This document shows positions 4,701-64,000 of a stretch of 64,000 nucleotides of DNA, piece by piece. The stretch is from Blasia pusilla (lineage: Eukaryota). A model generated the notes under the pieces. That model ran no database searches. It was not told the origin of the DNA and was given only the letters and a program-made list of their open reading frames with translations. The DNA lies in contig CM114271.1 of the NCBI GenBank assembly GCA_050084515.1, positions 44,640,001 through 44,704,000 of the forward strand, written 5' to 3'. The stretch's first letter is position 1. Every line of letters starts with the position of its first letter. Position numbers and translations under genes: made by a program.

Positions 4701-7700
4701 GGAACAAATTTCTACCATGTTGCTCTTAGGTCTTATTGTCCATTTAGGGTCGCCCATTATTATTATTATTATTATTATAGACACACATACACATTTGATC
4801 ACTTAGACTTGCTAACACCATAAAGAGGCAAGAAACCTCCTACTGAGATTCACATCAGTAGTAACCTTCACTTCACTGCTCTCAAAAAGAGCAGCCAAAA
4901 TTTTGCAGAGGTAGCACCTCGAATCTGTCTTCCCACATGCTCTTGCCGAGCCTTCCCACTATCCTAATTTTGAGCATATGAATCATCATTTGAGTCCATT
5001 TCTCAGTAAGAGAATTGACCTCATTTCACAGAGGATATCTCTGTGTCTGCACCAATCCCATTGTTACTACTCCCAATCCTATCTGATTATTTTCTTTGTT
5101 TCTTGATATCAAAACTAGCCCTTGAAGATCTTGCCAATACTCTTTTGGTCACAAGAAAGGACCAAACGTACCCTGATGCAGAACTGCAATAATGAAGCCC
5201 CCCAAGTCGAACCATTCGCACAAATCCAAGAGCATTACCAATTTCTGCAATAAGCCTCCGGAACTGATCCAGGAAACTCAATCCATCATCTGTCAGTCCA
5301 AGTTTCCTGATATCTTTATTCAGCTTCTCTGCCCTCTCTACAGGATAATCCTTGCCACCTTTTTCCCTGTTTTCCTGTAGTACAAGGGTTGACAATAAGA
5401 GAATGAGAGCAGGCATTGCCTCCCTGTGGGCTCACAAGTAATCCTTCTGACATTTCAACTGTAACCCATCCAATTTTCAGGTTTACCTTGCACGAAATGA
5501 TACCATACATTACTGAACCTGCATGGGATCTCACCATGAGACAAGTCCAATGTTCCCGAAGATCCCTGGCCCCGGGAAAGGGCAAGACCTGAGAGAGCAC
5601 AACTCCAGGTCTTCTGACGAAAGCTAAATTTGTCCAAAGAGGTGGAAGTAACTTTGTTAACTAGTTTGTACATGATCAGTGTTCCCATAAGCCAGTTGGA
5701 TTCCCCATGGAATCTATTCGATCCCATAAGAAACCAATTGTAGTCCAATATACCACAATAAAAACGTAGTTGTGGGCCCTAATCCTATAAAACCCTATCC
5801 TGTTATTGTTTACAGTTAAGATTACAGGTCATGAATATTACCTTGTGAAACCGATGCTCTTTAATCAGCCGTGATTTGATGTGGTCATCAAACAAAAATT
5901 GGGAGAAGACGACAAACTTTTGAGCGAGAAACTGGTAGGCAAAATTAACAGTTGTACTCATTATTCCAGTGCCATGAGTCCGGATAGAATTGGCGACGTG
6001 CCTCACATTTACTGTGTTGAGATACTTCCTGTTGCGAGCATTTGACGGCCTCTCTATGAACACCTGATTAGGTGCCACAGATATTAATATGAAGCAATAG
6101 CTCTCTTCCATAGTTTGGAAAACAGCCAGTACAAACATAAAGAAATAGTTTTTAAGGCAGTCTGGTTACCCTTTCCAAAGGCATTTTTAGAATAGGTATT
6201 TGATTTCAATGCTTATCCATCTACATTTCATGCATCAACTCAGTAATATTTCAGTAATACTGATAACTCCCTCCAAAAGTTTCAAACTTTTCACAAAACA
6301 AAGTCAGTTTCACTATTCATAGTTACCATTGACAGTGAAGGTGCTCTGTATATTCCAAAATTTTGCTCACCAAACCATTCACAAGTCATGATTAAGTCAG
6401 AACTTGCAGACCTGAGTGTTGAGATTGTAGGTATAACAGGCCACAAATAAGTGGATATTCCGCATAATTTCTAGTACATCCACTCCCTGCTCCAGTGTCT
6501 GACCAGGTAAATGAATGTCGTCCAGTTCCAAGCCATATTTCAGCTCTGCAAGATGCCGCATTTCTCCATATGTCTGAAATAGAAACACATCAAGACATTG
6601 ACCTGTTCATTACTTCAGCAATAGGAACGTTCAAAGGTCAACCATGCACAGTCCCTGATTCTCCTTGCAGCTCTCGAATCAAACTGTTCCAAGGATCAGT
6701 ACAGGTGCAAATCTTCCATCCATGAGACAGTCAAAGTCAGCATATGCTCACAAACAATATTACTGACCTTCCAGTTATGGAGAGCAACAGCAGCATGGTC
6801 GTAGAAAGCAGCAGCCAAATATTTTTCTACTTGACTTTTGATGTGAATCCGTTTGGAACTTAGTCGTAAGGGTTTCAAATGTATAAACCATGACAAGTCA
6901 CGTACACCCGTCTGAGTGGAGACCGAAGGCAAAAAATCTATGTTAGAACTCGGGAATAGCTCATAGAAATCTGTCAACCAAAGTACCCAAAACACACTGT
7001 CAATTGGAAACTGCACCAAGTCAGTACAATACAAGAGAGAGAGAAAGACTTAAAGAGAGCAAAGATGGATTCAGAAACACTACACTTAACACATTCAAGA
7101 AGGTAAACTAACAAAAGGCAGCTACTATCCCGGTACAAAAATATGCCAAGATGCTACCTTGGTTGGATTAACATTTACAGCACCCTTCAGGTGTGCTGAA
7201 TGCACATGTAGCCGAAGATCAGTTTCTATGTCTCGACACAATGGTGTCAACAATTCCTGCAGTGTCATAAATAAATTATGGAACCAACAATAAAATAATG
7301 ATACTCTTCAAACAAACAAACAGAAAACCTGTCAACCCGATGCCTGCAAGCGCCAAGGAAGCTCTGAATACATTTTAAACAGAAATTACAACACTTACAT
7401 TTTTTATAGCCTCCTCCATCTCTTTCTCATAGGCTTCTATCACTATTCTTTCAGCTTTGCCAGATTTTAGCAAGTTGACCGGATCTTTGAAGGCATTAAC
7501 CACCAACCTATGGCACCGTCAGAGGACCGAATACAAAAGTTACTTTTATCACAAATAAGAGAGGGTCAATAGGGGAATGCTCCAGCTTCTCTCTCCAAGG
7601 CAACAAGACATAGATCCCAACAACTCAAAAGCTCATGACAATAAATCCTAAAAAAAGAAAATAATGTGATGCAGTCACATATCAAGATGTGAATCATGGT

Positions 7701-25419: not shown

Positions 25420-25986
25420 CTGTTGACCACGGAGAAGAGTTACATAGGCCAAGAGTTTGCAAAACCATAGCGACTGGGCTGGGAAAAAATGCTCGCCGAA
25501 TGGCTCTACTAAATATTCGACATTATGTGGTTTGACGGCTTGAATTGAAAGATACTCATTACAACAATCAATTCCCTTGACAGAGAGAGAGAGAGAGAGA
25601 GAGAGTGAAGAAACGAGAGAGAATGACTAAAAGAGAGAGAGAGAGAGAGAGAATATAGAGTTTAGGGACCAAGTCACAAAATGGACGCTTCCCAAGAATG
25701 GGTGAGTGATAGTGTTGCGCCTACGAACATTCTGGGGCTTTTGGGAAAATGATCTACGAAGAAGGAAGGGAGGTGGTTCAACAGAAATAACATGCCATGG
25801 CAAGTTATTAGTGATGTTGAATGTCGAGCACAATGGAAACACATTTGTTGGGTCGACGAGTTGGGAAAGGTGAGAAGGACGACGTCGGTGAGCCAACTTG
25901 GTGTTGAGGATTCACACACAAGCGTGATAACCCTCCTTCTTGCATATTTTGTAAGGAGTTATTCTATACTGCTTCAAGAGACCCAA

Positions 25987-26175
<189 letters not shown>

Positions 26176-27468
26176 TATTCCGGTTTGTGGCTTCACTTAC
26201 GGATTTTAAATTCTCGGGACGAGTTTTGCCGCTGGTTCTCAAGTTTTGTGCCAACTAGAAGAGGATTCATAGAGCGGATTTCTTGTTACCTTATGTGGCA
26301 TTAGAGTAAGAGACAGATTAGAAGGAAGAATAATCAGATAGACAATGACCAAGGGAGAGAAAGGATATGACGATAGCAAATCGGGATGCTCTACGTTGTA
26401 CCCACCTGAGAGGAAGGCAGAGAGACAAGAGAGATGCCTTGTCAACAGGCAAATTTTGAAAGCCATGGGAATTCGATTGAGAAATTGTGCGACAGTTTCA
26501 ACAGACGACGGGATACCGCCATAGGTTGGGAAAGATGAGGAGGACGACTTCGGGGAGCACACTTGGTATCAAGAATTTGCAAGCAGAAACATAATAACTC
26601 TCTCGCTCGTGGAGTTGGGAGGGGGTTTTTCTCTACCCTAGAGAGAGAGAGAGAGAGAGAGAGAGAATAGTGGGATAATAGGACAAAAGAGCAATATATT
26701 TGAATTTTATTACATTAGATGGGTAGAGAAAAATTGTAAAGAGAACAAATTTGAGTGAAAGAGGAAAAATATTTTAATGCATCAATTAAGAATTAATAAT
26801 TGTATTATTTTATATTATAATGGATGATCCTAAGTGAAAATAAGGTGGATAATTAGAAAAATATTTTAAAATGTTTTTTCTTGAATTCATATTTGATGGA
26901 AGGGAAAATTAATTTTAATGCAAAGTAGTAGATTTTATTTAAATTTTATATATTTGATATTTTGGGAAAGAAAAATTAATATCAATGGAAAAGGGAAAAG
27001 ATTTCATCAATTGAAATTAACTTAGAATTTAGTTAATAAAAGTTTTTGGTGGGAAGAGTGGAAGGAGAAGAATAGGTATTGTTCAAACTATTATGGAGGA
27101 GTGAAATTATTTAGGGAAGTCGAATATTATTAAAAAATGAAATCTTATTACAACCCCTACTATAGTCGAGCCCGAGTGCAAAGGCTGCAAAATACAAGTT
27201 ATTTTGTAGTCTCGTCACCCGTCCGATGAGATCAAATGTGAATTTCTGAATGTCCGATAATTTTTGTCCTCTCATACTATTCCTCTTCGTGTTGTCCTTT
27301 CTCCTGAGTTTCTCCCCGTGTTAATCTTCCGGATTTCTTCCCACCATGCTAATCTTCTCCATACTGGTTGCTCTTTTAAGATTAAAAAAATGGAAATGAA
27401 AAAATGGAAATTATTTTTAGTTTATGATCAAATTATTTTCGTGCTTGCGCAGGGGATACTAACTAGTC

Positions 27469-49854: not shown

Positions 49855-52800
49855 TGTCATAGGTATTTTCTATGGAAAGAAGCATAATTGGTGGGAAATG
49901 GCTCTCACACTCACACACCACCATGGTAAACAAAATTTGCAATCAGAGAATGAGTGGAGGCTGGTCCTCTTCACAATTATATAAGGTATATACAAGCAAC
50001 CCTAACCCTAACCTTAAGCATAGTCTCGAGTTAGACTGATTGTGATTAACTAACCCTAGTTAAAATAATAACGTTTAACTGACTAACCAAGATTGAGCTT
50101 CCCTACTTTGTGTGAGTACCAAATATAATAGTTCATGTGTCTCATGAGCTTGATTGTAACTCAGTCTTCAATACTCCCCATCAAGCTCATATCGATATCT
50201 CTAATGCCTAAATCATTTCTAAACATCTCAAACTTATCTCTAGACAACTAACATATCAGCATCTGTGAATCCTTGTAATTGAAAACTCGGAGAAGGTTCA
50301 AATTGAAGCCTGAATTGAATAGAGAATTTTACTTACCACATAATCCTCCTCATAGCATCAAGGTGAGGTTTTCGAGGTGCTTGCATAAACTGGCTCACTA
50401 GGCCAACAACATAGCTCAAATTTGGTCTGATAATGGTTAGATAGATTAAACTTCCAACCATGCGTCTGTACATATTAGAATTTGCAAGCATCTCTCTTTC
50501 ATCCACTCTTAGCTTCACACTCTGGTCCAACGGTGTAGAGATTGGCTTACAAGCCGTCATATCATATTTTGAAAGCATATGAAGAGCATATTATCGTTGT
50601 AGTAACCACATGCTCTCTCCAACCTTGATAAACTCAATACCAAGGAAGTATTTGACTTCTCCCAAATCCTTCATATCAAATTCTGCTTGTAACTTAAGCT
50701 TGACTTGTTGTCCCATTTTTTTAATACTCCCAGTAATCAGGAGATCGTCAACATACAACACAATAATAACCATATGATCTTGTCCTCTCAAGACATATGA
50801 CGAGGAGTCAGAATCACATACCCTAAAACCCAACTCTTGTCAGACGTATGTAATCTTGCCATAGCAAGCTCTTAGAGCTTGTTTGAGCCCGTATAGAGCT
50901 TTCTTCAACCTGCATACGTGAAATAGAAACTTGGGATGCTCATATTCAGATGGTTGAGTCATATTGTCGCGACCCTCATAACCAAACAACACCAAATACG
51001 CGCCAAGCGAAACATCAGAACTCAAAGGAACTCACGCCGCGAGGTTTGCGCTTTGGAGAGGCGTTTGGTAGAGTCTCTTGGAAAAGTCTAAGAGACGAAA
51101 CGCGGAACAGAGTTGTGCATTTCATGCGTTAGTGGTCGCGACCAGGAAACCTAGACCAAACGCGAGCCGAGACTTGAGATGAGTTGAGTCTTGGAGGTTG
51201 GTTGCCAAAGAGGTGAGAACCAGTTTGGAACATGACTAGCGTTTGGGAGAATCTGACTGTGTTTAGGATCATAACGTTGAGCTCCGAGATGCGTTCGGGA
51301 CAAGTAAGGGCGCGTTGGAAAGCTAATCTTGAGACGCTTCCAACGCACCAAAGATCTCAGCAAACGCATAAGTACAGGCTGAGATATTGGCCGAAAACGA
51401 TTCAGAGAGCAATCGGGTTGAGGGCCATTGAGGGGCCCAGGTGTCTTTCCTAAATGTAGGGGCCCCGGAGATCCCAGAAGTACTAGTAAGGGGAGTACCT
51501 TCTCTGAGATGTCTTGGGAAACGAAACCCCACTTTGGGCGCCAAACGGCGTTTGAGGCACGGATGAAACGGGAGTTTTGGTGCGAAACCCAAACCCAAAC
51601 CCGATCCAAGGGAGTGGACTTTGTACGCCACACTTGGATTCCAACCGAGATTCAAATGCGAGTCTTGGTGAGGAACTCATTGGATGTTCATCGGACAGCT
51701 TGGAACCGCTTAGGCGCGAAACGCGCTTTCAGTTCCTAAAACCGACAGAAAGTCCGTCCCAAGTCTTTCGAGACTTGCCCGTGTTGGAAACCGCGAAACT
51801 AGGAAGGTTGAGCTTGAAGAGAGAGTCCGAGACGAGAACTCGGAAAGTAATCCCGCTGATTGATCCAAGACCCGACTAACCGGTGCGTGTTTGGATGCAG
51901 TCGGCGTTGAGAGCGTGACTCATCAACGCACGCTCGCAACAAACAAGATTAACGTTCAAGGAGAGTAGGAGCACGACACATATATACCTCCTTGTATAGA
52001 TCTCCATTCAAGAAGGCATTCTTGACGTCCATGTGATGCAATCTCCACTTCTTACTTAATGCAGCTGCAACCACTATTCTCGTAGTCGTCATCTTTGCAA
52101 TAGGGCTAAATGTTTCCTCATAATCGATGCCATATTGTTATGCATAGCCCTTAGCCACCAATCTCGTTTTGTATTTGTTAATTGTACCATCTTGATTGCA
52201 CTTGATTTTGTAAACCCATTTGTAACCAATAGCTTCCTTACTAGAAGGTATATCAACTAGTTCCCATGTCTATTGATGTCTCAATGCAGCAAGCTCTTCC
52301 TCCATAGCTTCAATCTATTCCATTTTACTTGCAGCTTCTTCAAAACAACTCGGCTCCTATTCTTGAAGGGTAGTTATCATATATGCATGATGTGTCGCAA
52401 GGAAACCTTCATTTATAAATCTATGCATTGGATGTGTAACTCTACTTGATCTACGAAGTTGTTGATCAGAGGTAGATGCCTCTAACACTTGACTCGAGCT
52501 TTGACTAGTGTCAACAGACTGAATACGTACTCTTCCCGTTCATGGACTCATGGATTAAACTGATGAATCTAGGACTTCTCATAATCCTCCACTAGTACTT
52601 GGGGAAGTTGAAGACAATGTCTATTGGTTTACAATCATATTCCATCCCTCAACACGCGAGTTTAGAGGTGAAATAGGCTCAGATGGAGCATACCATGACT
52701 TTAGCTCATCAAAGACAATATCCCGACTAATAATAAGCTACCTAGAGGATGGAATGTAGCACTTATACCCCTTAGTTCCATTAGCATAGTCAATGAAGAT

Positions 52801-54441
52801 ACATCTTTCAGACTTGAGGTCTAATTTCTGATGTCTCTTAGAAGGAACATGAGCATAACAAATACAACCAAATACTTTCAAGAAGGAAAAATCAAGTCTA
52901 CTTCATGTGAAGACTTTGAATGGAGTTTTATCATGAACTCCTACTGTTGGAGTTTGGTTGATTAAGAAGACTGCACATGCTACAGCCTCTGCCCAATACA
53001 CCTTAGGCATGTTCTTCTCATTCAGCATAGCTCGTGCCACTTCAGCAATATGTCGATTCTTCCTCTCGACCACTCCATTTTTTTGTGGATTGTAACGACA
53101 AGTCACCTGACGTTGGATGTTATTGTGACGTAAATAGTGATCAAACTCTGTTGAAAGATACTCTCCTCCTCTATCACAACGCAATTTTAGAATGTGTTGT
53201 CCAGTGTGCTTCTCTACTAGAACTCTGAATGTTTGGAACATTGAGAATACTTGAATTTCAGAAAGTATACCCATATATACCTAAAGAAGTCATCAATAAA
53301 TGAAACAAAGTACTAACAATCACTAAGGCTATGTTGTGATATTGTCCACACCTCATTGTCGATCAACTTCAATATCTTTGATGCTCTTCTACCTTGCTTT
53401 GGAAAAGGAAATCTATCTTGTTTTCCAAATTGGCAAGCAGGACATACCTCTAACGTAGGAGGAATCGCTAATTTATGGAGTCTTATTACTATATTAGATG
53501 ATGAAAGACTCTATAATCTTTGAATATTCATATGTCCTGTGAGCACAATTGCAGGATCTTTCACTGGCTCCAAACTATTTAACCATTTAGCCTGTGAGGT
53601 CATGTGATATGATGCACCAGAGTCAATCTACCAATCTGTTGTCGAGTCTTTCTTGACCATTGCTCCCATATGATGAGTCATGACCAAGAGATGCTCCGTT
53701 TGTGAATGTTATTATTCTTGGTACTGCTCTTGATGTTGTTGCTCCACATTTTTTTGTTGCTGTAAGGCTCTTGTTCTCATATCTGCCTTCTTCTTGAAGC
53801 AAAATTTTGCATAGTGACCCTTTATCCCATAGTAATTGCAAGATCCAAGGACCCTTTGCTGTTGACCTCGACTCCAACGGTTTCCACCATCACCACCTTG
53901 TGATTGTGTCTGGTACTGGTTTGTAGTTGATTGAGTGACGTTATACTGAGTGTCTCTTCCTCCATATGCTTGATATCCACCACAAGCACGGAAGCTTCTA
54001 CCACGATCCTTGCCTCTATTTGATCCATAACCTATAAATAGCGCACTTTCTTGCAGACTAGATGAGCTACCGCCGCCTACTAGGCATATTTCTTCACTAA
54101 TTAACAGTGGGACTAACTCTTGAAAGGTTGGATACTTCTCTCTCATAGAGATAGAGATCTCAAAGGACTTGTAATATTTTGGAAGGCCTTGAAGAGTGAA
54201 AAAAATCAGATCATCATCTTCTATTGTCACTCCAATGTTATTCAATTGATCAACAATATGTCTGATATTCAAAATATAATCATTGATGCTCTTCTATCCT
54301 TTCCTCACTTCGTTCAATTGCTGTTTCAATTGAAGCTTTGTGGCCTTTGTATATATCTGGAACATTTTTTCTTTGGAGTATCAACATCTTGAACGTGACT
54401 TATCATCGGCGAACTGATCGTTGTCATGACCATACGGATTA
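49855..54441 (-). mobile_element. Degenerate Ty1/Copia LTR retrotransposon; 5' end displaced by the Gypsy insertion
   Basis: Gag with knuckle CNYYGIKGHYAKFC, protease IDSGASYHMT (~53600-53630), integrase LRCDRGGEY...NGVVERKNRH, RT CRLKKALYGLKQA / LYVDDLLITG / YRRMVGSLIYLTIIRP. RNase H is mostly deleted. Polypurine tract at ~50171-50185; putative 3' LTR ~49855-50170 (TG...CA). Confidence 0.92.
50965..51978. mobile_element. Solo LTR (1014 bp) inserted in the Copia RT
   Basis: TGTCGCG...CACGACA termini; 5-bp TSD CATAT at 50960-50964 and 51979-51983. Confidence 0.9.
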
Positions 54442-57400
54442 TGTCGTAGAGTATAGTGTGCTAGTAGAGGACATTCCTTATGTAGGACCGTAGTGGCTTG
54501 GTAGAGATGCGGTTCCATACATAGGATTGGGGGTTACTCAGTTGGGGGTGAGTTTCCCAGTAGGGCCCGCTCTTAGGTTGGAGGATATAAGGTGGAGTGC
54601 ACTCAAAGAACAGTCAGTTCTTTGAGTTGAGCCTGTTGCGTTGGGAGTTAGCCGTGGTAGTGAGTAGAGCTCTTGGCTATGGTGTTTCCCGCAAGCTTCG
54701 ACCTGGATTCTCCCATCGTGGAGTGGGTTTGGCTTGATTGTATGTGATTGTAAACGTGTTTTATGACAGTAGGTCTTTCACGAATTTCACTCAAAGAACT
54801 GGATTAGATCGATGGTAGCTTCGATTGTAGATCAATAGGATCTGGTTAGGGCTGATTGTGTACTCAGCCGTGGATGTTCGGGGCTTTTTGCCTATGTTGG
54901 AGGTATGAATCAGGTGCGTGGTTGGTTGGGAAAGAAGCGCCTTGCTGAGAGCTTTCCAGCGTGGCGAACGGGGCGATAGGGGCATGTCTCGAGCATTTCT
55001 CGGCGTTTTGAGGCTTCGAGGCAACTCGTGGTAGCTCGAGGCGAGTGGGCGTGAGAGGCGAAGTAAGGAGCAAGGAGCAAGCAAGCAAGCTTGCTTGCTT
55101 GGGCATGAGGCAATTTTTGCAGGATTTGGGATTTGAGTTTTGCATAACTGGTCACCCATCTTTGGGCTATTTCGCTCTGGAGGACGCTTAATCGCTGAGT
55201 TCTTAACTATGCCAGGATGCATCTGTTGTAGCTCATTTGGTCTTTGTTCGAGATGTGTTAGGCGCTTTATGCATCTCAGGTTTTTGGTTGATGTACCTCT
55301 AGCGCATAGTACGGTGTAGCCTCTCCATGCAAGTGATATTTTCAGGTGCTGCGAGTTCGACTAGCACGTCATCGACCCGCGGCGGAGTAGCTATTGCGTT
55401 AGAATTGTGTGGTGGGTTTTGTGGATTCAGGGGGCACCACGTTTGGTGGATTGTGTTACCTTGATTTCCATTTGCGGTTGGAGGGTTGTCGTTGGACTTC
55501 CTGTGTCTGGATCCCCTCCATCGTGCTTCTTGCTTGCGCGCCCATTGTTAGGGTTGACGCTGATTTCCAGAGTAGTGTTACTCCTGTGTGCTACTGATAG
55601 TGAGGCTGGAGTGATGACCAGTAGATTGTGGACTGTGGGAGACTTCTTGTGGTGATGAGAGGTTAGATTGCCTACACCCATAGCTAGTAGAGCTACAATA
55701 GTAGAGCGACATCGACGTCACTTGGGTAATTTGGTGGTGGTGCGGCATCGGCGTTGGTCATCACGGAGTTGTCGGGTGGTCTGGTTGGGGACCGTGGTGC
55801 GGACAGTGGTGGTTTCACATGGAGTGGATTTAGGTATCGGCTACCTTTTCCATTTCCGATGGTTGATGAAGAGGAGGACCAGGGTGTTCCAAACACCGAG
55901 TCTTCTACATTGTTATCGAGTGTTGGAGCTCCATTGATTTGGGACATGGACGGTGGATATGGGGCCATGAAGGGCCCACGACGATACTCGGGTGCAGTGG
56001 GCACCATTGAGTTGGAGGACTTCATGCAAGAGTTTGATACGTGGTGTGATATGCAGATGTTGCGGAACGCCACGTTGTTTACACCCTTCTTGGCTTGGAA
56101 GGGGTTGTTTCAGCACTTGGAAGGACCACCCATGGATGATTACCATGAGTTTAGGAAGGACCATGTTGCTGAGATTGAGGCATGGAGACAATATTGGTCT
56201 CCAGGCTATGTGTCTATCACCCATGGTGGTATTGGTAGTAGTGCTCCTACTATGCCCCGCCCAGCCCGACGTTGAGTGGTAATGCAGTATGAGCCGGAGT
56301 GGGGGTACGGTGGAGGAGGTACTAGTGGGGGTACTAGTGGAGGTACTAGTGCCCCACCATCGCTCACCGGTTGGTTGCAGAGTTCTTCAAGAGGTTGAAG
56401 AAGAACTATCAGGAGTGAAGACGGAGAAGTTGAGGAATCTTCAAGACTTTGAGCGAAAAGATGGTGAGAGTCTTCGTGAGGCATACACTCGTATCGGCGA
56501 CGCTTGATTTCGATTACCCAGGGTGTGATTGAGGATCACGATCGCTTTTGGTACGGATCTTGGACAGAGATTTGCGCGTAGAGGGTACGTGATGCTACTC
56601 TTATGAGTGATGATTCACCCACATTGACCCATGTGTTTGCTTTATCCGAGAAGATTGAGCTTAACATGGTGAAGGAGAGAGTGGTGACATCCGCATTCAA
56701 GAGGGGATACAACTACTACTTCGGGTTCAGCCGCCCACCTCCGATCTCGTAGTAGTGGTGGTGGTAGTAGTAGTGGGAGTCGTGGGGGTACACGCGACCT
56801 CAGTCAAGTCCTAGAGGGACATTTGTGCAGAGACCATTGCCTTCATTTGCTGCCCTGCAGCAAGGACAGTCATGTTGGACATGTGGAGGTGATCATGTTA
56901 GGAAGTTTTGTCCCCAAGAGGATGGGAGACGGACTTTGGAGGATGGGCCTCAGTCGGCCCCAACTTAGTGTGATCATTGCGGGAGACTAGGTCATCCTCG
57001 AGAGCGTTGCTTTGATCTCCATCCAGAGTTGAGATTAGGCCGTGGCCGTGGTGGAGTAGCTCCGAGAGGCCGAGGTGGTAGAGGTGGTAGGGGTGGTAGA
57101 GGTAGACCAGTGGTTGGAGAGCCTACGGTGGCTACCCCTACCACTACGACAGTCACTATGGTCGCCAGGATTGAGCAGATTGGAGCAGAGTTGGCTACTA
57201 TGGTCGGTATCCAAAGATAGATCGAGTTCGGGAGCAGGGCTTCCACCTCTTATGGAGGGATGATCTCTCTTATATGGCGAGTGTCAAAGACAATGTTGAG
57301 GCATCAGTGCGATTCTGAGAGGAGCCACTCGAGCGTGAGAGCCACGTGGTGCTCTTGTGGAGTTGGACCCACAGAGGGGTGAGGTGGGAGGCGGCTAGGC

Positions 57401-58609
57401 TTCCCGAGTCATTCTTGTTGTCTGAGGTGCTTAGGACTCCATCCATGGTTCCTACGCTGCTTATTGAGCCGGCAGTGGGGATCGAGGCATCTACATCGCG
57501 TGTAGTAGACACGGATGCAAAGATCAATGCAAGATTATGCGGATGTCAACCGGTGTTGGGATCCCCATTGTTTTCGCCACGGAGTCGATGGCTTTAGGAG
57601 TTGACTTAGCTCTGTATTTGATTAGCGACCACGTTGTGTGAACGTGGGGTGTTATGCTACACGTGTTGAGGTGGATGAGGGTGTTGCGGTGGAGCGACCC
57701 TCTATGTCGAGTAGCATTGAGTACCGGTGCTACTTGGCAAAGAAAGAACGGCGAAGATGGATGCATTACCCCGCCAGCCATTGATCGTGAGAGGCTTATA
57801 CTGGTGTATGTATATTGGACAACCGGAGTGGGATCTTCCGATTGGTGAGTCCTACAGACAGTGTATAGACCGGATAGAGTCTTGTTAGACTCGGTGCCCA
57901 ACCTTTGATGTTGGGAAAGGCGGCATGTATTGGTTTGGGTATTCGGAGGTCGAGCTTGAGCCTTGCCCATTCCAGATTCAAACATCACTTGGAGGAGCCA
58001 ATGATAGGTCTCAATTCATGACACGGAAAAGTTTTTCATGCGGTTGAGACCAGATCATGCGATCGATAGCTCCCGGTTGGGAGTATCTCATGTAGTCACA
58101 TCGGCCGAGTCGTATGATGTACTAGTTGGAGGAGTAGTATTGTACCCGATGGGTTTTCAGATGGATTATCGGATCTGCGATGGGCGTCTTACTGACCTAG
58201 TTGGCAGTCCGGGATGGACGTATGAGCCAAGTTCTGTGAGATTTATTTATGGGGCTCGACCAAGAGGGTCTTCCCAACAAGTGTTAGCATCTCGGGTGGT
58301 TTTAGTGGAGTAGTCACTTGGCCAGAGACTTTTTGGAGGGTAATGTTTCTACTATGGATTCTCCTGCGCATGAGGAGGTAGAGGAGGTCCCTATTTTTTG
58401 CAGCAAAGTGGCATCCTCATCGTTGGATGTGCCACTTTGGAGTTCAGCGGTGCACTACGGCAAAAGGCCGACGCCTAGTGCAGAGGCTTGGTGTGAGGTG
58501 TTATACCTCACGAGGAAGAGGAGGCCCCACGGCGGACTCCTACTACTGGTCCGATTAGGTTATCCCTTTGGATACTACACCCATTGTATGGCAAGATCCG
58601 CCGGAGGGT

Positions 58610-59545
58610 ATTTGTGTGTTAGATCTCTTTGGTGGGATTAGCACGGTTTGGCTGCAGTGTTGCAGCCGGTATTCTGTCATGGAGATACGTGTATGTGGGA
58701 GCGAGATGAGACGGCCTGCAGAGTCTCATCTCGACATATTGGTCGATTGATGCGAGATACCTGAGTTGTTGCCGCCATCGGCTATTCGTGGGTACCGGCG
58801 TGTTTTTACCATCACACATTGCATTGTTGGGGCGCAGGACCTTGAGAGGGTTGGTCCTGTGGATTTGGTGATTGCCGGATGGCCATGTCGTGGTCATACA
58901 CGTCGGCCGGGTCGTGGTGAGGGATTACATGACCCTAGGTCTCGATTGTTTTGGGAGATGTTACGGGTGTTACGACATCTTCAGTTCATCAGCACGTGCT
59001 CTAGCTTACATTTCGAGAATGTTCCATTGTTGGGTGACACTCGGACCCGGATGATGCGAGTGTTCATGAGGTGCGGTCTTGGATTGACCAGCGGTGTTGT
59101 TGGATGCTGGCAGAGTTGGCTCGTGTGCACATCGCCCACGCTTGTGGTGGACAAACTTGTTGCCTAGGAGGTTCTACGTTGAGCATATGATGCAAGGTCT
59201 GGCGGGATCCTCGCCTTACAAATGGATAGTATCTTGATCTTGGCGACTTTCTCAAGTGGTGAGGTTATTGATCGGTCACCCATGGCGGCAGTGAACGTGT
59301 GGGCGACCTAGGATGGCACTACCCACATTTGTGAGTTTTCCTCGTCACATGCCTACAGGAAGGTGGTCCAGGGCTTGTATGGGATTCTCATGTGCGACAG
59401 TTGGTGGAGCCTAACGCCGATGAGAGAGAGCGTGTGATGGGATTTGCTATTGGTGTGACAAATGTTGCTTCTATTTACGAGGCTTCACGACGTCATGTGT
59501 TGGGTCAGACCATGGACCTGAATTGTTTGACTTGGATTTTGAGTC
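58610..59545 (+). pseudogene. DNMT3-like C5 cytosine methyltransferase domain within the Gypsy polyprotein
   Basis: Motif I VLDLFGGIST (58616), IV GPVDLVIAGWPC (Cys 58886), VI FENV (59015), VIII LDAGRVGSCAHRPRLWWTNL (59100), IX ERERVMGF and X RRHVLGQTMD (~59420-59517). Split across frames. Confidence 0.9.
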
Positions 59546-60012
59546 TTGGTATGGCCGAGCAACGTCGACTTCAGACTATGTCTGTGGGTCTTCCACCCCT
59601 TGTAATGAGCTCGATGGTTACCGGGACGGTAGAGGCATCGGTGGGGGCGAGGAGAGTAGTATTTTGCATCCTTGGAGTAAATGGGATGTAATGGTGGGCA
59701 TGTGGAGTTGGTTGCTCATCTTTGGTGGAGGAGTTATTTGCTCAGATGATGGTGTAGCTAAGGGTGTACCATCTTGTGAGGGGTTATGAGCGACCAATGG
59801 CATCGCCCCTCCCTCTAGTGTGCCAGTGGAGGAGACTTGGGAGCCATTACTTGGGCCCAAGCTTACGGGAGGTGAAAAACGACGCTTGACACAATTCCTA
59901 CGTGCTTATAGGAGTTGTTTTGCCTTTAGCATGAAGGAGTTGGGTTCTCTGGTTGGACCCGGTATACGGATTGATTTGGCTAGTGATACGCCAATCTTCC
60001 GTCGTCCCTACC

Positions 60013-61004
60013 TGTCGCGCCCCTACTCTCCTTGAACGTCAATCTTTAGTGTTGCGGAAGCGTGCGTTCAGTAGGTCACGAACTCATCGCCGATCTGCAC
60101 CCAAACACGCACTCTCGTTAGTCGGGTTTGGCCAACCGGCGTTCCAACCCACCGAGTCCTCAACTCGGCATCTCATCAAGCTCAACCTTCCTTAGTTCCT
60201 AGCTCCCAACACATGGCAAGTCCTTCAAGACTTGGAACAGACTTCCTGATTAGTCCAGGGATCTGAAACGGCACTTACACGCCTAGCGATCCCAACTGTT
60301 CAACGGTCCTCGTGTGAGTTCCGAACCGAGACCCAAGTAATTGAGTCGCGGCGTGAAATCCAAGAGGGATGTCTAAAATCGCCTCAATGGACTTGGTGCA
60401 GGTTTTCCAACCCAACGCCCAAACTCGCGTTCCGTTCCATGCCCTTGAGCCGCCCAAAGTGGGGTTTGGGTTCCAAGCACTCTCGGAGACCTTCCCCTTT
60501 ACTAGTACTTCTGGGGTTCTCCAATAACCCCTCCCCTTTGGGAAAAGAGGTTCGGGCTCTTCATTGTGGCCCTCAACCCGACTCCACTTACAGTCGTTTT
60601 CGCTTTGTATCTCGGCCATTGCTTATGCGTTTGCAGCGATCTTTGATGCGTTTGAACCGGCTCTCCATAAGCTTTCCATCGCACTCTTATTTGTTCCAAA
60701 CGCATCTCGGCGCTAAAAGTTATGGCCATAAATACAGTCGGAAACTCTCAAACGCAAGTGGCGTTCCAAGTCCGGATCTTTCCTTTGGCAACCCACTTCC
60801 TAGACTCGACTTCTTTCAAGTCTCATTCCGCGTTTGGTCCAGGTTTCCGAGTCGCGACCATCACATCTGAAACGCGACTTCTCGCTCGCGTCTCATCTCT
60901 TGTCTCCTCTTTGAGACAACTCCAACGCGCAAACCATCTTAGCGTGAGCCCGCTAATGTTCCGATGTTCCGCTTGGCACTTGTTTGGTCCTGAGGGTCGC
61001 AACA
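60013..61004. mobile_element. Solo LTR (992 bp) inserted at the start of the Gypsy RT; related to 50965-51978 in opposite orientation
   Basis: TGTCGCG...CGCAACA termini; TSD CTACC at 60008-60012 and 61005-61009. Removing it restores IFRRPYRYSDMERDLIQ. Confidence 0.92.
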
Positions 61005-63744
61005 CTACCGATATAGTGATATGGAGAGGGACTTGATTCAGAGTAGGACGTTGGACCTTTTGGAGGCTGGATTAGTGGAGTTGTTGCATGGAGAGTATGC
61101 ATCAGCCACTGTCATGCCTGCTAAAAAGGATATGCATGGCAACTACACGGATAGGCGGATGTGTGGAGATTACCGTCCTATCAATCGGCAAACCAAGGCC
61201 GATAGGTATGCCATGCCTACACCTGAGGAGATCTTTGATGTGGTGGGACAGGCAAAGATTTTCAGTACTTTGATCTTTGGCAGATACCATCAATTGCCTA
61301 TTCGGGAGAGTGACAAGGCCAAGACAAAGACATTTTGGGGTGTCAACTCTCATGGCAAGGATTGTTTGTACTAGTGGAAATTCTTACCCTTTGGGTTGAA
61401 GAATGCACTGCCGAGTTTGAAAGAGTGATGGACAGGATCCTAGCAGGTTGGATTTTGTTCGGTGTTACATTGATGATATCTTGGTGTTCAAGAACACGGT
61501 GGAGGAGCATCGATACATTTGCAGATGGTGTTTGAGCGGTTGAAAGCTCATGGTCTACGTTGCATCCAGGAAAGTGTAAGTTCTTCCATGAGGATGTTGA
61601 GTACTTGGGTCATGTGATCTATCCAGGTGGTTTGGGAGTTTAGCAAGCAAAGGTGGAGGCTATTGCACTTATTCGCGTCGGTAGATGTGAGTAGAGTTCG
61701 AGCATTCATGGGATTGGCGAACTACTATCGGAGGTATGTGAAGGATTTAGTGCTATGGCAAAGCCTTTGAACCAATTTCTGAAATCAGATCAAGAGTGGC
61801 AATGGGAGATGATCAGAGAGAGCTTTTGTGGAGCTTAAGGCCCGAGTTGGTGGCGGCGCCTATCTTGAGGAGACCTATCGAGGGCGCCCATTTACACACC
61901 GATTGGAGTAGGTTGGGACTTGGAGCGGTGTTGACACAACATGATGATGAGCACATGGAGTTTGTGGTGGCCTATGCAAGTCGTTCGAATAATGCAAATG
62001 AGTCGCGCTATAGTTCATATGAGGGAGAGTGCTTGGCAAGAGTGTGGGGGTGGCACACTTTAGGTGTTACTTGTTTGGCACCCGTTTACCCTTATTCGAT
62101 CACCAACCGCTCAAGTGGTTGATGGAGTCGGACAAGCTTACAGGGAAGCTTGCACGGTGGGCTCTTATCTTACAGGAGTATGACTTCCAGGTGGTACATA
62201 GACCTGGAGTTGCCAACCTTGATGCTGATGGGTTGAGTAGGAACCCATGTACTAGCCAAGAGGATACAACAAGGGCTAGATGGTATGGCGAGGTTGATGA
62301 GGAGATGGTGCCAGGTTGGCATGCATCCGCCTTTTTATGTTGGTTAGGGGTGGACTCTAGTATGGAGGACCACATGATATCTTACTCTAGTCAGAGGGTA
62401 GATGGCTAGCCTTCAGATCCTAAGGTTGGAGATGATGGTACAGATCAGCGTGATATTCATGATGATGCGTTGGTGTTGGAGTTCCTACGGACCGGTAGGG
62501 TGCCAAGCATAGTGAGTGCCAAGGAGCGAGACCGTGTTCTTCAACGTGCTAAGAGGTATCGATTGGAGGGAACACATATTCTCCGCGTGTGGGAGGATGG
62601 TAGAGTACGAGTAGTGCCACATTTGGCTCAGAGAGAGCGCATTGTGCGACATGCCCATGAGGAGTTGGGACATTTTGGGGTAAAGCGTTTAGGATATAGC
62701 TTACTCCTTGGCCAGTATTGGTGGCGTGGCATGCATACTCAGGTGCAGCAGTTGGTGTCACGTTGTATGGTTTGTGACCGGGTGAGGGCATCATTTAATG
62801 CCCCTACACCACAATTACACCCCTTGCCTATTATGGGGTTGGGTTACCGTTGGAGTGTGGACTTTTGCGGGACCGTTATCGTTGGTATGCGACATCATCA
62901 ATATGTGTTGGTGATGGTGGAGCACTTCTCCAAGTGGATTGAGTTGGTGGCATTACGGACAAGGCGAGTGAGGAACGGCGTATGCGTTTCTCGGATAGAG
63001 TGCTTAGTCATTTTGGTGCACCGGTGAAGTCGACCGACCAGTGGTACAGAGTTTCAGTGGTGAGTTTTGGTCTTGTGTGACAAGGCGTTGATTGATCATC
63101 GGACCACGTCTCGAGATCATCAGAGGCGGATGGTTTGGCCGAGCGTGTGGTTCAGACGGTGAAGAGGGCATTGCGCAAGTATGGCCTCTGAAGGGGCATC
63201 TTGGAGACTGGATATTCAATTGCCATGGTTAGCCATGGGTATAGGTTCGATCGCCAAGCATCCTTGGCTTCCTTCTCACCTTATTTTCTGTTCTACGGCC
63301 GAGATCCGGACTTGCCAACAAAGAATTCATCGGGAGTCTAGTGAGGTGGTGAACCTTGATGACCCGAGATGTGGATGAGGGTGTGTTCTCGCGAGCGGAG
63401 CTCTTTCGAGAGTTATGCCAATGACCTTTGAGAATCTTGCCATTGCTCAACATAGGGATACGTTGCGGTATGCAACCATTCGAGGTGGAGGTTATCGACC
63501 ATCGATTCAGAGGTTCCATGTGGGGACTATGTCTATTTGCAGCAGATTGCCCGACAACGTTGGATGTGACGGTAGGCCGCACTATTTTACGAATGCGCGA
63601 GGTGTTAGCTTCTGGAGTTCTCATGTTGGAGGGTCGTGATGGAGTTGTTTGGAAGGACCATTGCGTAATTGTGCGCCATGTCATCTTCCAAATGTGGATG
63701 GTATCATTGACCCAAGCTTAGCCATGATACGTGCTAGCTTGAGG

Positions 63745-63884: not shown

Positions 63885-64000
63885 GAGAGGTAGATGACTT
63901 GATCTTTGCATGATATGGATTACAGATGTGCGACTAACGATGGGGCAACCTAGCACCCGGCCTTCTGATTCGGGCACCCAAGAAGGTGTATAGCATGTAG

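Follow-up and report, generated by a model that had tools for sequence, protein, structure and literature searches.

In a 64,000-nt stretch of Blasia pusilla DNA (assembly GCA_050084515.1, contig CM114271.1, positions 44,640,001 to 44,704,000 of the forward strand; hereafter, the window), we found a retrotransposon that carries its own DNA methyltransferase (DNMT). Very probably, the region from ~54.4 to 64.0 kb is a dead copy of a Ty3/gypsy long terminal repeat (LTR) retrotransposon whose 3' end is cut by the window edge, and its DNMT3-type methyltransferase, which has no reader domains, is a stable and selected part of a family that also occurs in liverworts, mosses, and streptophyte algae. 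The order of the family is gag with two CCHC knuckles, protease (PR), and DNMT, followed by an in-frame stop and then by reverse transcriptase (RT), RNase H, and integrase (IN).

The first-pass annotation of this DNA, made from its letters and open reading frames (ORFs), had claimed six C5-methyltransferase motifs in order on the + strand. All six were located, between 58616 and 59517 and over three frames (Table 1). In these enzymes, motif IV is the Pro-Cys pair with the catalytic Cys, motif VI is ENV, and motif VIII is RxR. A stop codon at 58748–58750 lies between motifs I and IV (ORF list). Pfam PF00145 matched the piece 58751–59167 alone above the curated cut-off (24.6 bits vs. 22, E = 2e-5) and had no match in the other three DNMT pieces of the window scanned singly; the natural relatives score 31–54 bits. 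Searches with these relatives against the window (tblastn) gave E down to 5e-93. In frameshift-aware alignments, 58301–59697 was identical to the Marchantia protein P0004 at 299 of 453 residues (66%; 17 frameshifts and two in-frame stops) and to the metagenome protein P0008 at 298 of 455 (15 frameshifts and no stops); P and L numbers are our labels for proteins and related loci. The six-motif methyltransferase of the window is more than a chance match. As had also been claimed, it is intron-free, is on the pol strand of a Ty3/gypsy element, and is flanked by a protease remnant (57803–58333) and by RT (from 59838); the copy is indeed frameshifted, with 15–17 frameshifts in the DNMT depending on the reference protein.

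As regards the kind of METHYLTRANSFERASE, 25 of the 27 matches of P0004 among all solved structures (PDB) were DNMT3A/B/C. As a single sequence, P0004 had low identity to the DNMT3 structures, and E was only 1.7e-8. Profile A1, which was built from mostly DNMT-only relatives, found 29 DNMT3A/B/C sequences at E values from 1.5e-22 to 1.6e-18; weaker matches were DRM (1.7e-12 to 2e-10), M.HhaI (3.5e-8), and DNMT2 (~1e-7 to 1e-6), and no DNMT1 or CMT (chromomethylase) chain appeared at E ≤ 0.01 in this search. Pfam detected no PWWP or ADD reader domain in P0004, P0107, P0188, or the ORF of L030. This is compatible with DNMT3 membership, because some eukaryotic DNMT3s also lack companion domains (PMC12344493). 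Judged by its sequence, the domain appears to be the catalytic part of a non-permuted DNMT3-type enzyme without reader domains. This agrees with the class first proposed for it, both in the ranking of DNMT3 far above DRM and in the motif order I-IV-VI-VIII-IX-X.

The domain is a family trait: it is found at the same position across liverworts, mosses, and streptophyte algae. A 138-aa piece of the window matched 31 longer proteins (E 1e-40 to 5e-11), including Marchantia models with PF00145, RVT_1, and RNase H, and of 8000 candidates scored with profile A1, 340 proteins reached E ≤ 1e-3. Among the best 120 of these 340, from which the species names were taken, the named sources were Marchantia polymorpha, M. 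paleacea, Riccia sorocarpa, Calypogeia fissa, Sphagnum fallax, S. tenellum, S. troendelagicum, and Closterium. No vascular plant was named among these 120; most matches are unnamed, so that presence there is possible. M. polymorpha has at least 17 protein entries in the family, and Mesostigma and Klebsormidium nitens also carry the domain. According to Pfam, P0107 is one ORF of 2188 aa with zf-CCHC, Asp_protease, DNA_methylase, RVT_1, RNase H, and integrase. P0188 has a similar layout in which the protease was undetected, and Closterium P0152 and K. nitens P0288 have the order DNMT-RT-RNase H-IN.

The same arrangement was present in metagenome loci found with a DNMT seed. In 21 of the 35 best loci, PR, DNMT, and RT were collinear on one strand, and two more had DNMT and RT; the remaining 12 were short or truncated, and in L024 gag adjoins the DNMT with no PR between them. 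None of the 35 had the DNMT at another position or in the opposite orientation to the genes of the transposable element (TE). One locus, L018:2303-9589, has direct and inverted internal repeats (4846–5313 vs. 9378–8911) and is a rearranged copy. The window itself holds a single copy of the DNMT-bearing element (tblastn with natural relatives), and that copy is badly broken, as it would be if a host DNMT3 fragment had been captured once or inserted secondarily, or if a host DNMT3 pseudogene were ringed by retrotransposon pieces. We consider such an origin extremely improbable. Other copies of the family carry the DNMT at the same place (21 of the 35 seeded loci, and proteins from at least seven named genera), a natural ORF of 1369 aa joins gag, PR, and DNMT (L030), the ratio of nonsynonymous to synonymous substitutions (dN/dS) is 0.24–0.32, and among the joints listed in the read contigs none excises the DNMT segment.

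In quick tree searches with SH-aLRT support, for which the window copy was entered with an X at each break, it grouped with S. fallax, S. troendelagicum, and P0008 (SH-aLRT 98–99). This group, together with Marchantia, Calypogeia, and P0196, formed a bryophyte clade of nine rows (SH-aLRT 100), nested among unnamed clades and the TE-borne DNMTs of Klebsormidium (two separate clades), Closterium, and Mesostigma. The whole TE-DNMT assemblage was split from an outgroup of DNMT+Dam proteins (SH-aLRT 100). The second tree omits P0158, P0167, and P0180, outgroup rows of the first tree that had long branches and an odd attachment to Mesostigma. By Pfam, ten further representatives were either TE-linked or had DNA_methylase as the sole strong match; we took the latter, to which P0158, P0167, and P0180 belong, as bacterial-type. 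Searches for homologues returned TE-borne relatives and no host DNMT3, DRM, or CMT sequences, and a protein atlas search gave only generic DNA_methylase clusters of Streptophyta and Chlorophyta. Some of the distant matches (P0102, P0131, and P0139) combine a C5 DNA_methylase with a Dam (N6-adenine) domain, and P0131 also has RVT_1.

The DNMT domain evolved under purifying selection. For dN/dS (Nei–Gojobori), the window copy and 27 related loci were aligned by codon to P0008, copy by copy. Between the window and 26 of the loci, dN in the catalytic domain was ~0.26 and dS ~1.0, and dN/dS was 0.24–0.32; the pair with L015 was saturated and was left out of this range. Bootstrap 95% intervals in four pairs covered 0.17–0.36. 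In the same 11 pairs, dN/dS was 0.12–0.20 for RT-RNase H and 0.33–0.63 for the stretches flanking the DNMT. Neutral evolution of the domain, which had been named as grounds for rejecting the first reading, is thus not what these values below 1 describe.

The first-pass annotation had placed the DNMT inside one polyprotein with RT. This does not apply to the clade of the window element, in which the DNMT ends a Gag-PR-DNMT ORF and an in-frame stop precedes RT. In the window, a TGA (59787–59789, + strand, RT frame) lies 48 nt before the RT homology and is followed by GCG; relative to the TAG of the relatives, the window reads T-G-A-G. Seventeen loci of the same clade have TAG (11) or TAA (6) followed by CAA, 48 nt before the RT homology. 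Taken together, a stop was present 48–69 nt before the RT homology in 21 of 23 loci, with CAA or CAG as the next codon in 20 of them; because near-duplicates occur among these loci, the independent count is nearer 13. L015 reads TAG-CAA-CCA. L029 and L030 (both TAG-CAG-TTA) and L031 (TAG-CAA-TCA) have the stop 69 nt before RT, L028 has TAG-TAG at 57 nt, and L027 was uninformative. In the distant L035:3365-7342 (29% identity), an in-frame TAG is upstream of the DNMT, and DNMT-RT-RNase H-IN is uninterrupted in one frame; clades thus differ in where the stop stands relative to the DNMT.

This stop is not the result of decay, because in L030 a single TAG alone separates two long ORFs of the same frame, one of 1369 aa (PR and DNA_methylase by Pfam, gag by tblastn) and one of 1047 aa; the same 1047-aa downstream ORF is found in L031. 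Also consistent with a stop at this position, both Marchantia models, P0004 and P0014, terminate ~75 residues beyond motif X. UAG-CAR-YYA is the readthrough context of the tobamovirus type, and gammaretroviruses have a gag-UAG-pol arrangement. Since the stop is conserved and its context resembles UAG-CAR-YYA, we infer that RT-RNase H-IN is probably made by stop-codon readthrough, with Gag-PR-DNMT as the major product. The enzyme is therefore predicted at the Gag level and not at the RT level. The conserved stop that places it in the Gag-level ORF is new here, and a literature search found no paper on readthrough in these elements.

Several observations pull against this account of a selected, Gag-level DNMT3 enzyme. 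Copies without DNMT are invisible to a search that starts from a DNMT seed. The DNMT tree consists of family copies and an outgroup, without host DNMT3, CMT, or MET1, and the DNMT3 assignment comes from the PDB ranking and from where the algal relatives were placed in published work. Of the 378 pairs, 364 were usable; their median dN/dS was 0.51 (361 pairs below 1 and three at 1 or more), and most related copies are decayed, with 1–7 stops in the DNMT. Such a median is to be expected where close copies have diverged largely by neutral decay since they inserted. Between DNMT and RT, P0107, P0188, and L035 lack the stop, which is therefore clade-specific. Group A has CAA-CCC and not the full CAR-YYA, and an ATG stands two codons past its stop; reinitiation is an alternative to readthrough in this group, and the ATG is not conserved in other clades. 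Finally, the DNMT of the Klebsormidium element KnitGypsy produced no methylation in yeast, a result that its authors call inconclusive (de Mendoza et al., 2018, PMC5890265). This negative carries little weight, because human DNMT3B was also inactive in that assay (PMC5890265).

What the enzyme does for the element can be proposed tentatively. Gag-PR-DNMT would be the abundant product, from which RT-RNase H-IN would be extended by readthrough of the stop, and the DNMT would enter the virus-like particle with Gag. It might methylate the new double-stranded complementary DNA (cDNA), or else the fresh insertion, de novo and probably at CG. We hold methylation of the cDNA or new insertion to be a serious possibility, though short of a probable one. 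Methylation of cDNA was proposed by de Mendoza et al. for DNMT-bearing DIRS retrotransposons (PMC5890265), and the CG methylation produced in yeast by SymbioDIRS-Dnmt3 is the one result that directly supports such self-methylation of cDNA.

The catalytic residues bear on this proposal. They were scored in 275 stored proteins that match the family profile, with the proteins covering a column as the denominator. The catalytic Cys was kept in 236 of 243, and the Pro before it in 195 of 243; Glu and Asn of ENV were present in 202 and 206 of 223, and the two arginines of the motif VIII RxR in 150 of 178 and 155 of 169. A loss of the catalytic motifs, which the first-pass annotation had counted as evidence against its reading, is thus not seen. 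A variant of motif IV, AGWECQG, with Glu for Pro (P0008 residue 186), occurs for example in Closterium P0174, P0144, and P0070. An unlikely alternative is that the domain was kept to methylate RNA or the primer tRNA, as DNMT2 does, or as a non-catalytic adaptor to DNA or chromatin, as DNMT3L is. The Glu variant in 37 of the 243 family proteins, the presence of DNMT2 among the weaker PDB matches, and the negative yeast assay of KnitGypsy-Dnmt3 would fit such a role, and RNA methylation was raised by de Mendoza et al. for a LINE-borne DNMT (PMC5890265). A pure adaptor, however, would not need the conserved Cys, ENV, RxR, and motif IX and X residues, and the profile fits DNMT3A/B/C about 15 orders of magnitude better than DNMT2.

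It is similarly improbable that the enzyme acts in trans on host chromatin, where it would methylate the target site or its surroundings to steer or tolerate integration into heterochromatin, or would perturb host silencing. At the end of the Gag-level ORF, the DNMT would exceed RT and IN in amount, the window copy is in a gene-poor, repeat-rich stretch with a CpG observed/expected ratio (o/e) of 0.67, and the read sets contain a great many different contig pieces of the family, all of which such an action could accommodate. Against it, Pfam found no chromodomain, PWWP, or ADD in P0004, P0107, P0188, or the L030 ORF, which would be of use to an enzyme directed at chromatin.

The features of the element are listed in Table 1. 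Both the window and the relatives have the Ty3/gypsy domain order gag-PR-RT-RNase H-IN.

Table 1. Features of the DNMT-bearing Ty3/gypsy copy (window coordinates)
Feature	Position	Strand	Basis or remark
Presumed 5' LTR and long leader	54460..55945	+	Approximate, inferred from the LTR layout of relatives
gag remnant	55946..57220	+	Capsid-like N-terminal part begins MDGGYG at 55946
Two CCHC knuckles in gag	56873-56911 and 56969-57010	+	ORF list
Aspartic protease remnant	57803..58333	+	tblastn with P0011 residues 122-300
DNMT3-like C5 cytosine methyltransferase domain	58580..59650	+	Motifs I, IV, VI, VIII, IX, X in order
Motif I VLDLFGGIST	58616-58645	+	Same frame as IV and VI
Motif IV DLVIAGWPC	58862-58888	+	Frame of I and VI
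Motif VI FENVP	59012-59026	+	Frame of I and IV
Motif VIII AHRPRLWWTNL	59127-59159	+	Second frame
Motif IX ERVMGF	59428-59445	+	Third frame, with X
Motif X LGQTMD	59500-59517	+	Third frame, with IX
First RT part, cut by nested insertion	59838..60007	+	tblastn with P0011 residues 696-753, 78% identity
Nested solo LTR of another element	60013-61004 (992 bp)	.	TG start, CA end; splits RT
Remaining RT and RNase H	61006..62409	+	tblastn with P0011 residues 753-1190
Integrase: H2C2 zinc domain and weak rve core match	62410..63483	+	Pfam PF17921, E=5.6e-13

GC content and GC skew change at about 54 kb. In related loci, the LTR is ~340 bp long and begins ~1.48 kb upstream of gag, and direct LTR pairs are ~8.7 kb apart (identity 92% in L026 and 94% in L006). 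Because related LTRs begin ~1.5 kb upstream of gag, the 5' LTR of the window copy should be near 54.46 kb. No repeat pair was found within 50–64 kb, and the 3' LTR is expected just past base 64000. Matches to a primer binding site of the tRNA-iMet type numbered five in the window (4.94 expected by chance), none of them near the element.

The window gag is 80% identical to residues 1–99 of Marchantia P0004 (tblastn), and Pfam had no match on its short pieces. Three short arrays, all inside gag, are the only tandem repeats at 54–64 kb. At the protease active site (57868–57888), the window reads DRIESC and then a stop, where P0004 and relatives have LLDSGA. PF17919 and PF17917 matched 61751–62122 and 62023–62409, respectively, which places RNase H at 61751–62409, and in a frameshift-aware alignment RT-RNase H was identical to Marchantia P0011 at 344 of 409 residues, with nine frameshifts and two stops. 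For IN, the rve core (PF00665) scored 17.8 bits, under the cut-off of 32.6, and the region was also matched by residues 1721–2181 of P0107 (tblastn). CpG o/e was 0.73–0.86 in the element vs. 0.67 window-wide, and CpG depletion was not discriminating.

The RT is split by a 992-bp insert, which we read as a solo LTR of another family, surrounded by a 5-bp target-site duplication (CTACC at 60008–60012 and 61005–61009). A copy with 70% similarity is at 50962–51978 on the minus strand. Contigs without the insert join 60007 to 61005, skipping 997 bases, in the read sets X1 (six contigs), X8 (four), and X4 (one); at this junction, five letters fit either side. As read, the window copy is a dead relic without any function: frameshifts disrupt the DNMT, the protease has lost its active site, and the solo LTR divides the RT.

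The pattern of the damage is unusual. The window DNMT has 15 frameshifts and no stops vs. 0–3 frameshifts and 1–7 stops in the 27 related loci, and RT-RNase H has nine frameshifts and two stops vs. 0–2 and 0–8. The related copies, which show the opposite pattern, were assembled from short reads. In addition, the read set richest in this sequence contains only 0.64 of the sampled 31-mers, which fits ~1.4% differences per base by our estimate. Because of this odd pattern and the 31-mer coverage, part of the frameshifting may be assembly error. That the frameshifts are largely small indel errors from long-read assembly of a repeat, with a real copy less broken than it appears, is a possibility of some standing but not the likelier case. 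Compared with other copies in X1, 194 of the 259 differing places are transitions, as real divergence gives, and neither the changes at the protease active site nor the solo LTR insertion can be explained as indel errors. The accuracy of the frameshifts was judged from contigs alone. The read-set contigs contain many distinct variant copies of the family, and their summed depths are not a copy number; contigs of X13, a set that may be RNA, over 58483–59476 differ from the window by ~6% plus gaps and are uninformative on the transcription of this copy.

Outside the element, the window has few genes and many repeats, and no Rfam family reached its gathering score in the window. On the minus strand, 53712–54293 is an open frame of 193 aa with a copia-type gag match (PF14223, E=1.5e-10) and a CCHC-like knuckle; this remnant of a Ty1/copia element closely precedes the position where the gypsy element presumably begins. 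At 25753–26304, a long run of GA/AG dinucleotides reads (RE)n in one frame.

Retrotransposons that encode the silencing enzyme of their hosts have been characterised so far only in dinoflagellates and one charophyte alga. With bryophytes among the hosts, how a transposon profits from a DNMT of its own can be asked in organisms for which genetics, methylomes, and transformation are available. The sequences collected here show the lineage to be widespread in mosses and liverworts. We regard as rather doubtful the fuller history in which a gypsy lineage would have held a DNMT3-type enzyme since before plants colonised land and would still be multi-copy in mosses and liverworts, its Gag-level ORF before the readthrough stop loading every particle and the enzyme marking the new DNA of the element itself, a transposon-autonomous epigenetic mark; some of the counted bryophyte "DNMT" genes, and possibly a share of the de novo methylation in these plants, would then come from transposons. 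The TE-borne copies P0014, P0009, P0209, and P0278 (Marchantia and Sphagnum) are named "DNA (cytosine-5-)-methyltransferase" in UniRef, and counts of host DNMT genes can be inflated, because TE copies are filed under this name or as a host "hypothetical protein".

The first-pass annotation knew of no characterisation of such elements in land plants. No describing paper was found in a search that left subscription papers and supplementary DNMT tables (PMC5890265, PMC12344493), which may list bryophyte copies, outside, and to this extent the statement stands; against it, public protein sets of Marchantia, Sphagnum, Calypogeia, and Riccia already include copies under the name "hypothetical protein". 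Later papers mention "streptophytes (Gypsy-DNMT3)" without naming land plants in the parts consulted (PMC12344493; bioRxiv 10.64898/2026.05.21.726589).

Compared with host DNMT3 enzymes, both mammalian DNMT3A/B/C, which are the closest solved structures, and plant forms such as PpDNMT3b (Yaari et al., 2019, PMC6453930), the family domain shares the motif order I-IV-VI-VIII-IX-X and the short stretch between VIII and IX. It differs in having no PWWP or ADD by Pfam, in its location inside a TE ORF, and in its low identity. Plant DRM2 and NtDRM have a homologous catalytic domain and are the second-best PDB group. The motifs of DRM are circularly permuted, as is well established (PMC5890265), whereas the family order is not, and only profile positions 76–205 match, at the C-terminal end of DRM.

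Other retrotransposons with methyltransferases are less similar. SymbioDIRS-Dnmt3 and SymbioLINE-DNMT of Symbiodinium are also retrotransposon-borne DNMTs but belong to the DIRS and LINE classes; we liken them by description only. The former methylated CG de novo in yeast, and the authors consider both to be independent acquisitions (PMC5890265). EpiLTRs, or DAM-LTR elements, are LTR retrotransposons with DNA methyltransferase domains, whose DNMT module was placed beside DNMT4 and distinct from the streptophyte Gypsy-DNMT3 in the parts of the preprint consulted (bioRxiv 10.64898/2026.05.21.726589). The EpiLTR-like proteins P0102, P0131, and P0139 (DNA_methylase plus Dam) form the outgroup to the family in our DNMT tree. 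With readthrough viruses, the family shares a single in-frame UAG between an upstream structural ORF and a downstream polymerase ORF, and L015 and L029–L031 have the full CAR-YYA of the tobamovirus type; it differs in that the stop follows PR and DNMT and not Gag, and in the CAA-CCC of group A.

The closest known system is KnitGypsy-Dnmt3 of K. nitens, which has an intronless Dnmt3-like domain in its Pol ORF with Ka/Ks<0.2 (de Mendoza et al., 2018, PMC5890265); in the published tree, the K. nitens relatives fall in a divergent Dnmt3-related clade (PMC5890265). Like the window element, it is of Ty3/gypsy type and has an intronless, non-permuted Dnmt3-like domain in the coding region under purifying selection. 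The K. nitens proteins P0288 and P0309 matched profile A3 at E=5.5e-129 and E=6.1e-73, and P0288 shares the order DNMT-RT-RNase H-IN. Because both proteins are in the same family as the window element, this element is not of a new kind; it belongs to the lineage published as KnitGypsy-Dnmt3. What is new is its membership in a large bryophyte branch of that lineage, which includes M. polymorpha. This branch differs from the published element in its bryophyte hosts and many copies, with the K. nitens sequences in other clades of the DNMT tree. According to a figure legend, the repeats in K. nitens have a DIRS-like arrangement (PMC5890265), whereas the moss-type loci have plain direct LTR pairs of ~340 bp. 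The DNMT of the published element is inside the Pol ORF; in the bryophyte clade, a stop separates it from RT.

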